From the NCBI GenBank assembly GCA_963749655.1, contig CAVVOB010000025.1, forward strand, positions 1 through 19,096: a stretch of 19,096 bases of DNA, read 5' to 3'. Each line of letters begins with the position of its first letter. Position 1 is the stretch's first letter. This DNA comes from Nitrospirota bacterium (lineage in GTDB: Bacteria; Nitrospirota; UBA9217). Under the pieces are notes generated by a model. It saw nothing but the letters and a program-made list of their open reading frames with translations, did not search any database and was not told the origin of the DNA. This document shows positions 1,842-10,125 of this stretch, piece after piece. The translations under genes were made by a program, and so were the position numbers.

Positions 1842-2792
1842 ATGTTTCGTCCCCAGATAAAAGTCCTCGATTGCACGGTCCGCGACGGCGGCCTGATAAA
1901 CCAGTGGCAGTTCAGCGACGAGTTCGTGCGCAAGGTTTTCATCGCGCTCACGCAGGCGGGCGTGGATTACATGGAGATCGGGTACAAGTCGTCGGAGAAA
2001 TATTTTTCGCGCACCGACAACGGTGCGTGGAAGTTCTGCTGCGAGGACGACCTGAAGCGGATCGTGGGCGGCGTGGACACGACGATGAAGCTCTCCGCCA
2101 TGGCCGACATCGGCCGCATCGACCATCACGATATCCCGCAGAAGAGCGAGAGCGCCCTCGACATGATCAGGGTCGCGTGCTATGCCAAGGAAGTGGACAA
2201 GGCGATCGACCTGGCGCACCACTGCATGGACAAGGGCTTCGAGACCACGATCAACCTGATGGCGGTCTCGAAGGTGCTCGAAAAGGAGCTCGACGAGGCG
2301 CTCGTCGACCTCTCGAAGAGCAATGTTCCGGTCATCTACCTCGTGGACAGCTTCGGGGCCATGTATTCCGAGCAGGTGCAGTTCTTCGCGAAAAAATACA
2401 TGGATGCGCTGCCGGGCAAGGAGCTCGGCATCCACACCCACAACAACCAGCAGCTCGCGTTCTCGAACACGATCGACGGGATCATCGCGGGTATCAACCG
2501 CCTGGACGCCACGATCTACGGCATGGGCCGGGGCGCGGGCAACTGCCCCCTGGAGCTGTTGCTGTCGTTCCTCAAGAACCCCAAGTTCGACATACGGCCG
2601 GTCATCGAGATCATCCAGGACACATTCATTCCCATGAAAGCGAAAGTCGAATGGGGCTATCACATTCCTTACATGATCACGGGCATTCTGAACGAGCATC
2701 CCCGCAGCGGCATGAAAGCAATGGGAATGAAGAAGCTGCCGGATCTGAAGAAGTTCTACGAGGACTTGAGGGACGGGACGCCGCTCGATTAG
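1842..2792 (+). CDS. DRE-TIM metallolyase, 4-hydroxy-2-oxovalerate-aldolase-like (HMGL-like) protein
   Basis: RBS GGAGG. Motifs LDCTVRDGG, GVDYMEIGY, IYLVDSFG, metal-binding GIHTHNN, and DATIYGMGRGAGNCPLELL. Confidence 0.85.
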   Translation: MFRPQIKVLDCTVRDGGLINQWQFSDEFVRKVFIALTQAGVDYMEIGYKSSEKYFSRTDNGAWKFCCEDDLKRIVGGVDTTMKLSAMADIGRIDHHDIPQKSESALDMIRVACYAKEVDKAIDLAHHCMDKGFETTINLMAVSKVLEKELDEALVDLSKSNVPVIYLVDSFGAMYSEQVQFFAKKYMDALPGKELGIHTHNNQQLAFSNTIDGIIAGINRLDATIYGMGRGAGNCPLELLLSFLKNPKFDIRPVIEIIQDTFIPMKAKVEWGYHIPYMITGILNEHPRSGMKAMGMKKLPDLKKFYEDLRDGTPLD

Positions 2793-2793
2793 A

Positions 2794-2842
2794 AGTTTCG
2801 AGTTTTGAGTTTCGAGTTTTGGGTTTTAAGTCTCAGGTCTTC
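2794..2842 (+). repeat. Heptamer tandem array (AGTTTYG, ~7 units)
   Basis: agtttcg agttttg agtttcg agttttg ggtttta agtctca ggtcttc, starting 2 nt after the TAG stop. Confidence 0.8.
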
Positions 2843-2903
2843 GCGGCTGTGAGTTTCTGCGCGGTAATGGATGGCTTTAGCGGGCAAAGCGAAAAGCTTC
2901 TCA

Positions 2904-3150
2904 GCCACAAAGGGCACTGAGAGCACAAATGAAATCATAACAATCGCTGTTGCAATCCCGCGCCTTGGCATCCCCCGGCTCCTGCCGGGGGTGGAAAGCG
3001 CTCACTCGCGCGTGACACGAACGTGTCACGCATGCGCGAGTTCGCAGTTCCGGGAGGTCGCGTTGTTCGAGGGAGCCTCCGGCTCCTGCCGGAGGGGGCT
3101 CCACTAACTGTAAGCTTTTTCTTTCTCTGTGCCCTCTGTGATTTCTGGCA
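2904..3150. repeat. Nonamer-unit inverted repeat element interrupted by a miniature IS200/IS605 element
   Basis: Left arm gccacaaagggcactgagagcacaaa (2904-2929). Right arm tttctctgtgccctctgtgatttctggca (3122-3150), reverse complement ...cacagagggcacagagaaa. Confidence 0.7.
2956..3104 (+). mobile_element. Non-autonomous IS200/IS605-family miniature element (PATE-like), 149 bp
   Basis: Left end: target GCAA (2952-2955), guide GCAT (2968-2971), hairpin CCCCCGGC-TCCT-GCCGGGGG, outer stem GCGCCTT/AAAGCGC. Right end: guide GGAG (3072-3075), hairpin CCTCCGGC-TCCT-GCCGGAGG, terminal CCAC (3101-3104). No transposase ORF inside. Confidence 0.72.
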
Positions 3151-3182
3151 AAGAAATTTAATCTTACAGGCTAAAATCAATC

Positions 3183-3686
3183 TTACTCCGTCTCGCACGG
3201 CGGAACCACTTCCTTCAGCTTCTTGAGCCTCTCCGGGGTGAGCTCTGTCTTCACTTCATAGGCGCCCGTTGCGTGGGCGTCCTTTTTTTTCATCAACAGC
3301 CATTCCTTGCCCGTTGATTTCGGAAGACCTTTCATCTGTGCAAGGGCAAAGGCGCCCTTCAGCTTCTCCCCTTTGAGCTCAAAGCTCAACTTGCCGCTCC
3401 TTAACGCGTCTTCCGGATCAGCATCAAGAGCAATAAATTCTCCGGAGTCCCATACAACCACCGGCCCGGCGCCGTAGCGGCCTTCCGGAATGAGCGCCTC
3501 GAAATCGATATATTCCAGGGGATGGTCCGGCACCATGACCGCCAGGCGTTTGTCCGCAGGATTCATCGACGGGCCCTTGGGGATTGCCCAGGACTTGAGC
3601 ACGCCGCCGATCTCGAGCCGGAAATCGTAATGAAGCCGCTTGGCTTTATGCTCGTGAACGACGAAGCGAAGATGTTCGGGTGACAT
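3183..3686 (-). CDS. Stand-alone LigD 3'-phosphoesterase (DNA ligase D N-terminal/PE domain) protein
   Basis: FVVHEHKAKRLHYDFRLE..GVLKSWAIPKGPS..PADKRLAV..PDHPLEY..FE..IPEGRYGAGPVVVWDSG is the canonical PE signature. At 167 aa it has no ligase or polymerase domain. Confidence 0.92.
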   Translation of the reverse strand: MSPEHLRFVVHEHKAKRLHYDFRLEIGGVLKSWAIPKGPSMNPADKRLAVMVPDHPLEYIDFEALIPEGRYGAGPVVVWDSGEFIALDADPEDALRSGKLSFELKGEKLKGAFALAQMKGLPKSTGKEWLLMKKKDAHATGAYEVKTELTPERLKKLKEVVPPCETE

Positions 3687-9934: not shown

Positions 9935-10125
9935 CTATCCGCAGATTACGCAGGTTTCGCAGAAGATGCAAAAGGTCCGCTTTGCTTTTTTCGCGCACGA
10001 CTTTCGAGAACCCGCTGTGTGCTCTGTGCCCTCTGTGGCAAAAGGCTTTGATTGCTTCTCTTAAAAGGGGGGGGTCCGTGAAAAGCGTTGGTACGATCTG
10101 CGGCATCAGCGAAATCCGCGGATAG
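9935..10125. repeat. Nonamer-unit inverted repeat element (CCGCAGAT type) enclosing an orphan arm of the CACAGAG type
   Basis: ctatccgcagattacgcaggtttcgcaga (9935-9963) faces atctgcggcatcagcgaaatccgcggatag (10096-10125). Internal gctgtgtgctctgtgccctctgtggc (~10014-10039) resembles the arms at 2904 and 3122. Confidence 0.8.

Follow-up and report, generated by a model that had tools for sequence, protein, structure and literature searches.

The closest described relatives of the element reported here are IS608 (ISHp608) and ISDra2, insertion sequences (IS) of the IS200/IS605 group, and the palindrome-associated transposable elements (PATEs), which are ends-only derivatives of such insertion sequences. 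Members of the group insert into the lagging-strand template (PMC5027513), the target is set by the left guide only (PMC3201880), and re-setting of the target by a change of the left guide has been shown by engineering IS608 (PMC3201880, PMC5934647). Here we describe a 19,096-nt stretch of DNA from a Nitrospirota bacterium (the window; contig CAVVOB010000025.1 of assembly GCA_963749655.1, GTDB lineage UBA9217), in which positions 2956-3104 are very probably a non-autonomous miniature element (a PATE, or miniature inverted-repeat transposable element, MITE) of the IS200 group of IS200/IS605, moved as single-stranded DNA by a Y1 (HUH) TnpA made elsewhere. Its copies form a repeat family with exact ends, insertion after a tetranucleotide, covariation between guide and target, a strand bias, and a hairpin and end architecture in common with real IS200 elements. 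A first-pass annotation, made from the letters alone, had proposed a miniature element mobilized by TnpA (Y1), and the ends, the empty sites and the covariation support that proposal. Elements of the PATE kind have already been described (PMC10055086, PMC7290912); the present family is new only as far as our comparisons reach, which included no literature search on the family or the lineage.

The source assembly (4.27 Mb in 39 contigs, 86.6% complete, contamination 5.8%) confirmed that the window stretch is one of about 50 copies of a repeat family of 50-200 nt. BLAST of 2940-3115 against this assembly returned 63 segments, a motif count gave 52 loci, and an end-anchored census found 37 left/right pairs together with 11 lone left ends and 7 lone right ends. 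The sequence common to the copies runs from 2952 to 3105 (GCAA...CCACT) and so includes the target word and one T past CCAC; as aligned, 26 of the 37 paired copies start with GCAA and 33 end with CCACT. Copy alignments from this genome revealed unrelated flanks, no terminal inverted repeat and no target duplication, so that the expectation that copies would follow a GCAA-like word and end in CCAC, without duplication, was borne out. The target had been read as (T)GCAA, of which GCAA stands and the leading T does not: no T is conserved ahead of GCAA, and the conserved T instead follows CCAC, in 33/37 paired copies. The copies are modular, with a left module, a central palindrome, an optional 46-nt hairpin insert and then a right end of either type A, the form found in the window, or type B. 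At five loci, and at more in related genomes, 50-nt forms carry only one hairpin, whose left half comes from the left hairpin and whose right half comes from the right one; to the left these five retain the flank of a left end and to the right that of a right end, and they therefore look like internal deletions between short direct repeats, as do four further copies that consist of the first 10-11 nt and the right part only. One pair of regions in the assembly, C13:22216-22947 and C22:177706-178435, is 98-99.7% identical with a filled copy included, and reflects either a duplication or the presence of two strains in the bin.

Where exactly does the element begin and end? Two paralogous empty sites in the source assembly show that the extra DNA is TCCC...CCAC, or its equivalent shifted by one T, and that the tetranucleotide belongs to the flank, as the first-pass annotation had predicted. 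The filled site at C26:43444 reads ...TTTAGGAA/TCCC...CCAC/TATAGTTTTTGC (slashes mark junctions) and its empty paralogue on C30 reads ...TTTAGGAATATAGTTTTTGC; over a longer stretch the same comparison is ...CTGTTTAGGAA/TCCCGCG...CTCCAC/TATAGTTTTTGCTG against ...CTGTTTAGGAATATAGTTTTTGCTG. One empty site keeps the target word, in that copy as GGAA. The filled site at C26:6970 (...CCCGGTGCAA/T...CCAC/TGACGCAG) and its empty C5 paralogue (...CCCGGCACGATGACGCAG) follow the same pattern. A third empty site stands at a contig end, where C37 finishes ...TTGCAATT (GCAATT) and the filled C39 paralogue reads ...ATGCAA/element/TTAGAA. The word varies more among copies than the element does: across 34 copies of the source genome, differences from the consensus number 21-24 at the six bases before the word, 4, 4, 7 and 1 at the word itself, and 0-4 at the next eleven bases. 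Because a T is present at both junctions, the registers 2956-3104 and 2957-3105 (with words GCAAT and CCACT) are indistinguishable on these data. At the +1 place IS608 prefers C and ISDra2 pairs a G (PMC5934647), and we have therefore retained the tetranucleotide register 2956-3104.

For the window copy itself, no orthologous empty site can be read, because in none of the 14 other genomes of the genus are the two flanking genes adjacent, and the flanks of 68 copies in related genomes gave no matching empty site in the window's genome. Contigs from four other metagenome runs (freshwater sediment, wetland, soil) align to no more than about 2941-3122 (mostly 2952-3109), with divergence setting in at 2948-2956 and 3104-3107 and loose ends also at the module border 3051. 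The fraction of the 901-nt stretch found in a sequencing run never exceeded 0.17, and the window locus itself is therefore in none of the runs; positions left uncovered by the four runs carry no information.

The family shows, with unusual clarity for a natural system, the guide rule of IS200/IS605. We collected 147 copies unique by flank from the source genome, related-genome loci and named genome records, and counted 128 of them; the 19 excluded copies have other 4-mers at the guide place and are mostly indel-shifted or degraded. The left guide GCAT is accompanied by the predicted flank GCNA in 47 of 61 copies (GCAA 38, GCTA 6, GCCA 2, one more), GAAT by TCNA in 20 of 23, CAAT by TGNA in 32 of 39, and AAAT by TTNA in 4 of 5. 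For the four guide types combined, the predicted flank is present in 103/128 copies, whereas 1000 shuffles of the flanks gave 36 on average and never more than 50. The changes are crossed Watson-Crick pairs, guide position 1 with cleavage position 2 and guide position 2 with cleavage position 1. The rule further pairs guide position 4 with cleavage position 4 but gives flank position 3 no partner, and no position of the word varies more than this one. This position-by-position pairing is the one that the first-pass annotation had applied; we checked it against the two IS608 pairs given in PMC5934647 as well as the present data, and it is upheld both by the covariation of four sub-families and by its fit at the right ends of real IS200 elements. 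The empty sites show that the target word does not just travel with the element. Among the tabulated type-A ends the right pair GGAG/CCAC is constant, the commonest rows being GGAG...CCAC followed by T (38 plus 4), and no compensated alternative occurs among them; this invariance fits the choice of target by the left guide only (PMC3201880). The stem of the right hairpin does have a compensated variant, CCACCGGC/GCCGGTGG, in three copies of one related genome (L048, L062, L105).

GC skew was taken as a proxy for the direction of replication because the contigs are unordered, and the top strand of the element lies on the G>C strand at 39 of 52 loci when skew is computed over +/-5 kb, at 43 of 52 over +/-20 kb and at 46 of 52 over +/-50 kb (binomial p = 4e-4, 2e-6 and 1e-8, respectively). 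The G-rich strand is the lagging-strand-template sequence, so this bias agrees with the insertion preference described for IS200/IS605 members in PMC5027513.

By analogy with IS608 and ISDra2, from which the reaction chemistry is borrowed, transposition would proceed as follows. Each end would fold on the top strand into an 8-bp hairpin with loop TCCT and be bound by a TnpA dimer, and the four bases 5' of the hairpins would serve as DNA guides, with GCAT:GCAA setting the left cut at 2955/2956 and GGAG:CCAC the right cut at 3104/3105. The cut ends would be joined as a single-strand circle (CCAC to TCCC) and the donor resealed as GCAA-T. The left guide of the circle would then pair with a GCAA elsewhere in single-stranded DNA, chiefly in the template of the lagging strand and with a preference for T as the next base, and the element would be inserted 3' of the new GCAA without duplication.

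Which enzyme might act on these ends? The best candidate, by analogy, would be an IS200-type TnpA like that of L092, an intact element in the related genome G056. Related genomes carry IS200-type elements of about 560 nt that encode tnpA only, one type in 12 identical copies in G014 and a second in G019; in these types the left hairpin lies 17-18 nt past the boundary, an outer stem is present, TGAAAG follows the hairpin, and 9 nt ending in ACT lie beyond the right hairpin. Right ends of elements of these types obey the guide rule, with the pairs GATG/TCAC, AATG/TTAC and AGTG/CTAC and a T next in each. A truncated tnpA in G019 ends in the hairpin of the miniature family, and a 110-nt family copy abuts the truncation. 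Relatives of this truncated gene occur in 7 of 64 genomes of the taxonomic family, L092 among them. In L092 the identical 20-nt hairpin, CCCCCGGCTCCTGCCGGGGG, stands at either end, and the layout is that of the miniature element: the cut lies 15-16 nt from the stem, an outer stem is present and T occupies +1. L092 has the left guide AAAA, with TTAT/T, and the right word TCAT/T, and its protein is a 142-aa Y1 transposase matching PF01797 at 95 bits. Among 80 metagenome loci with an L092-type TnpA, 57 left ends were found, 56 with the guide AAAA and one with AAAG; at the right, TCAC goes with GAAG or GATG and TCAT with GAAA or GATA. Forty-four of 51 right ends of these relatives fit the rule, nearly all then followed by T, and guide position 4 covaries with cleavage position 4; left and right stems may differ within one element, with the loop TCCT kept. 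Since these real IS200 elements have other guides and first bases, they are relatives of the miniature element and not its parent. At the break point of the truncated tnpA (L088 524-930, G019:C11), the 110-nt copy lies in the orientation opposite to that of the gene, an arrangement that looks like an element-associated deletion.

An autonomous tnpA/tnpB element with the same ends, which the first-pass annotation had named as something to look for, was not found, the nearest elements sharing the hairpin and the architecture with other guides. Matches to left-end and right-end patterns in five related genomes, read by eye, included no left/right pair 0.4-3.5 kb apart in the correct order; three IS200 types in or near those genomes were rejected as parent on account of other hairpins or guides; and 80 loci around exact right-end matches held no tnpA apart from one relic. 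The corollary that a TnpB of the parent would recognize a transposon-adjacent motif (TAM) resembling TGCAA likewise has no basis, as tnpA is all that the nearest relatives carry, and the source genome has no TnpB domain (PF07282) above the cut-off, the best score being 14.5 bits. Of the five related genomes, G012 and G014 have a single PF07282 match apiece, and neither match is close to an inspected copy. A derivative of a TnpB/omega-RNA-bearing IS605 or IS1341 element was considered and rejected, there being no PF07282 over the cut-off in the source genome and no Rfam match. The source genome does encode at least eight Y1 proteins above the Pfam cut-off, including a 182-aa protein like the REP-associated tyrosine transposases (RAYTs; REP, repetitive extragenic palindrome) and several of 240-330 aa. 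Six paralogous long Y1 genes (PF01797, 187-329 aa, extended C-termini, one with an in-frame TAG) lie at C13:71309-72241, C28:139149-140084, C23:125400-133714 (three genes) and C30:83976-84962, and none is linked to the hairpin family.

The right ends of type B pose a puzzle of their own. In the source genome type B accounts for 31 copies and type A for 15, and in related-genome loci the counts are 3 and 44. The type-B sequence, ...AGTCCCGACAGGTCGGGAT-GCCGGAGGGGGCTCCACT, retains only the last 18 nt of the window form; in folds, an unrelated 6-bp hairpin stands in place of the guide GGAG, the 5' arm and the loop, and no canonical hairpin plus GGNG guide was seen by eye or in the folds. Type-B copies are nevertheless near-identical at many distinct loci, with the same target and the same end as type A. 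One possibility is that type B is recognized through the retained 18 nt, with an inner GGAG pairing with CTCC.

Several observations weigh against a TnpA-mobilized miniature element. Type B should not be cut at CCAC under the IS608 model, which does not account for its cutting. The source assembly, 86.6% complete, contains no classical short TnpA and no TnpB, and its Y1 proteins are all long or RAYT-like. No autonomous element with the guides, termini or first bases of the miniature element was present among the related genomes and metagenome loci examined. The match between candidate enzyme and element is imperfect in both directions: G001, G010 and G011 have an L092-type tnpA without the miniature element, and most genomes that bear the element gave no match to such a tnpA. 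As to the covariation, since the copies are related by descent, the four guide/flank types represent some three independent compensatory events and not 103, and 25 of the 128 copies break the rule, among them the copy with a clean empty site that is inserted after GGAA.

In one alternative the family is a REP-like repeat, spread and maintained by a RAYT-like or long Y1 protein of the host (a domesticated TnpA-REP system), with the hairpins as REPs. Such an arrangement would draw on the Y1 proteins listed above, would be in keeping with the lack of a classical TnpA in the genome, and would accommodate the 50-nt one-hairpin forms at five loci and in related genomes; RAYTs, too, use a 5' tetranucleotide beside the hairpin. 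No Y1 gene is flanked by the hairpin, however: the nearest hairpin lies 3,260 nt from one of 10 Y1 loci, and for the other loci the distance is 11.6-87 kb. The copies are direct pairs of a left end and a right end with different flanking modules, with no inverted doublets, and the arrangement that the first-pass annotation had named as speaking for REPs is thus not what the genome contains (nearest Y1 gene 3.3 kb, the rest at least 11.6 kb). The end architecture and the 20-nt hairpin match real IS200 elements, and insertion 3' of a guide-matched word is documented by the empty sites. We consider a REP origin improbable.

The folding of the element invites another alternative, in which recombination copied either a gene for a small structured RNA or a module with a regulatory or terminator role, the hairpins serving the RNA. 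Both strands fold well as RNA (z = -3.8 and -5.7), the window copy sits between two convergent genes, and the passenger modules are themselves hairpins. A scan of 2700-3400 against Rfam at E <= 10 returned only matches at chance level, however, the best of them (E = 0.31) lying far below its gathering score; the two ends alone are conserved and the middle is freely replaced; and precise insertion at guide-matched words, empty sites and a replication-strand bias are traits of a transposon, which makes an RNA origin very unlikely. Equally hard to credit is a miniature derivative of a transposon of the IS110/IS1111, IS91 or IS607 type, which would account for the lack of terminal inverted repeats and duplication and could take the single T at both junctions as a 1-nt crossover core, yet the ends match IS200 ends feature by feature, the target word changes together with the four bases 5' to the left hairpin, just as it does in IS608, and no related recombinase gene stood beside the copies in the loci read, where no systematic search was made.

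The IS200-type miniature element extends beyond its source genome. It was present in 13 of 24 other genomes of the same taxonomic family and in none of 16 genomes from ten further families of the phylum. In a species-representative collection, 98 stretches contain the exact 30-nt right end, and among the 80 of these that were listed, 39 are titled Nitrospirota, Nitrospirae or Nitrospiraceae and 41 Syntrophaceae, Smithella, Smithellaceae or delta proteobacterium. More than 20% of the DNA outside the element could be aligned to the source genome at 22 of the 39 listed loci of the Nitrospirota group and at 0 of the 41 of the Syntrophaceae group, and the Syntrophaceae/Smithella/delta group is mostly of the GAAT/TCAA type. 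Viral contigs yielded 0 exact matches to the 30-nt right end. Three loci titled delta proteobacterium or Syntrophaceae (L187, L195, L184) hold forms of 283-305 nt in which the conserved GGAGGTCGCG stretch is separated from the right hairpin by about 190 nt of non-coding cargo rich in hairpins; no tnpA remnant was seen in them by eye, and no further search was made. It is possible, though we hold it doubtful, that the family has re-set its insertion word at least three times (GCAA, TCAA, TGAA, TTAA) under the same kind of TnpA, has crossed between two distant lineages of anaerobes, and has in type B a right end recognized outside the IS608 model.

The features of the window copy are collected in Table 1. 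The two near-identical direct hairpins about 100 bp apart, the guide/cleavage pairs GCAT-GCAA and GGAG-CCAC and the IS608-like outer stem at the left end, all described in the first-pass annotation, are present where the table places them.

Table 1. Features of the miniature element and its borders in the window
Feature	Position	Strand	Basis
Miniature element (149 nt), active (top) strand	2956..3104	+	copy alignment, empty sites, contigs of other metagenome runs
Flank word GCAA, target and left cleavage tetranucleotide, outside the insert	2952..2955	+	empty paralogous site; guide covariation
Outer stem GCGC..TT / AA..GCGC enclosing left guide and left hairpin	2960..3002	+	DNA fold of 2952-3010
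Left guide GCAT, abutting 5' foot of left stem; predicted partner GCAA	2968..2971	+	sequence, covariation
Left hairpin CCCCCGGC-TCCT-GCCGGGGG, presumed TnpA binding site	2972..2991	+	fold; identical 20 nt in IS200-type relatives
Central palindrome, variable passenger module	3005..3040	+	folds, copy alignments
Conserved stretch CGGGAGGTCGCGTTGTT... preceding the right end	3051..3071	+	kept in all size classes, many genomes
Right guide GGAG, abutting 5' foot of right stem; predicted partner CCAC	3072..3075	+	sequence; rule fits real IS200 right ends
Right hairpin CCTCCGGC-TCCT-GCCGGAGG	3076..3095	+	fold
Right cleavage tetranucleotide CCAC, final four bases of the element	3101..3104	+	copy ends, empty sites
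T at +1 after the cut, target-side preference or last base of the element	3105	+	T in 33/37 paired copies

GCAA stands 12 nt before GCAT, and CCAC 5 nt beyond the right stem. A repeat search of the window recovered the two ends as a direct repeat, 2967-2994 against 3071-3098, 82% identical at a spacing of 104, and the terminus GCAATCCC... is not an inverted copy of the other, ...CTCCACT. Folded as single-stranded DNA, 2940-3115 reaches -50.5 kcal/mol against -35.4 +/- 2.9 for shuffled sequences (z = -5.2), a value that 0 of 200 shuffles attained. In copy alignments the central palindrome is missing from the 110-nt forms and is replaced or extended in others. The stretch at 3051-3071 is partly complementary to the first bases of the element, TCCCGCG, and may, by prediction, pair with the 5' end. 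The element lies between two convergent genes, encoding an HMGL-like protein (1842-2792, +) and a LigD_N phosphoesterase (3183-3686, -).

The window holds further repeats. A short tandem repeat of the CTCTGTG type, often followed by GCAAA (...TCTCTGTGCCCTCTGTGGCAAA...), occurs at 2908-2932 (-), 3125-3140 (+) and 10013-10037; two inverted copies bracket the miniature element, and the genome has 30 matches at two mismatches or fewer. The run TTTTGAGTTT(C/T)GAGTTTTG is repeated at 1668-1688 and 2791-2825, directly 3' of the stop codons of two + strand genes. Two pairs of inverted repeats of about 30 nt, 7102-7132/7270-7300 (84% complementary) and 9934-9963/10097-10126 (80%), are separated by 133-137 nt and could be other small elements or structured regions.

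If the reading as an IS200-type miniature element is right, the family would be a natural counterpart of engineered IS608, its sub-families differing at guide positions 1 and 2 and in the matching flank while the right pair stays fixed. It would thereby offer ready-made, evolution-tested guide/target pairs and minimal 110-nt ends for TnpA-based tools of single-strand insertion. The type-B right end bears on what TnpA truly requires at that end. An element that has no gene and carries an identical 30-nt end would have spread between two distant lineages of sediment and wetland anaerobes. For annotation, the family accounts for about 50 intergenic repeats per genome that would otherwise be mistaken for REPs, small RNAs or terminators.

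How, then, does this element compare with known systems? As in IS608 and ISDra2, the hairpins are subterminal and lie on one strand, insertion takes place 3' of the left word without duplication (PMC3201880), there is a preferred +1 base (PMC5934647), and the insertions are biased toward the lagging-strand template (PMC5027513); as in IS608, four-base guides stand 5' of the hairpins, the IS608 pairs being AAAG/TTAC and GAAT/TCAA (PMC5934647). In contrast to both, the miniature element has no gene, uses the words GCAA and CCAC, prefers T at +1, and has perfect 8-bp stems with loop TCCT; its cuts lie 16 nt from the left stem on the 5' side and 9 nt beyond the right one, and the distances given for IS608 are 19 and 10 (PMC3201880). 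The L092-type elements (L092, L096, L095, L102, L278-L357) share the identical 20-nt hairpin, the outer stem, T at +1, the right-end rule and a similar total length of non-coding ends, and differ in carrying tnpA (142 aa), in their pairs (left AAAA/TTAT; right GAAA/TCAT or GAAG/TCAC) and in their first bases, which are TTGAGCCGCAT... and not TCCCGCG.... Systems of REPs and bacterial interspersed mosaic elements (BIMEs) with a RAYT resemble the family in having GC-rich intergenic hairpins at high copy and a protein of the Y1 HUH family in the same genome (PMC6006769); the miniature element differs in having distinct ends with separate cleavage words and neither REPtron nor inverted doublets. 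The PATEs of Haloquadratum, Halanaerobium and Geobacillus stearothermophilus are ends-only derivatives of IS200/IS605 moved by TnpA in trans (PMC10055086, PMC7290912), as our element probably is. The PATEs described there derive from tnpB-bearing IS605 or IS1341 types, many with a gene for a guide RNA, whereas the miniature family belongs with the tnpA-only IS200 group, comprises four sub-families of different target specificity, and is found in two distant bacterial lineages.

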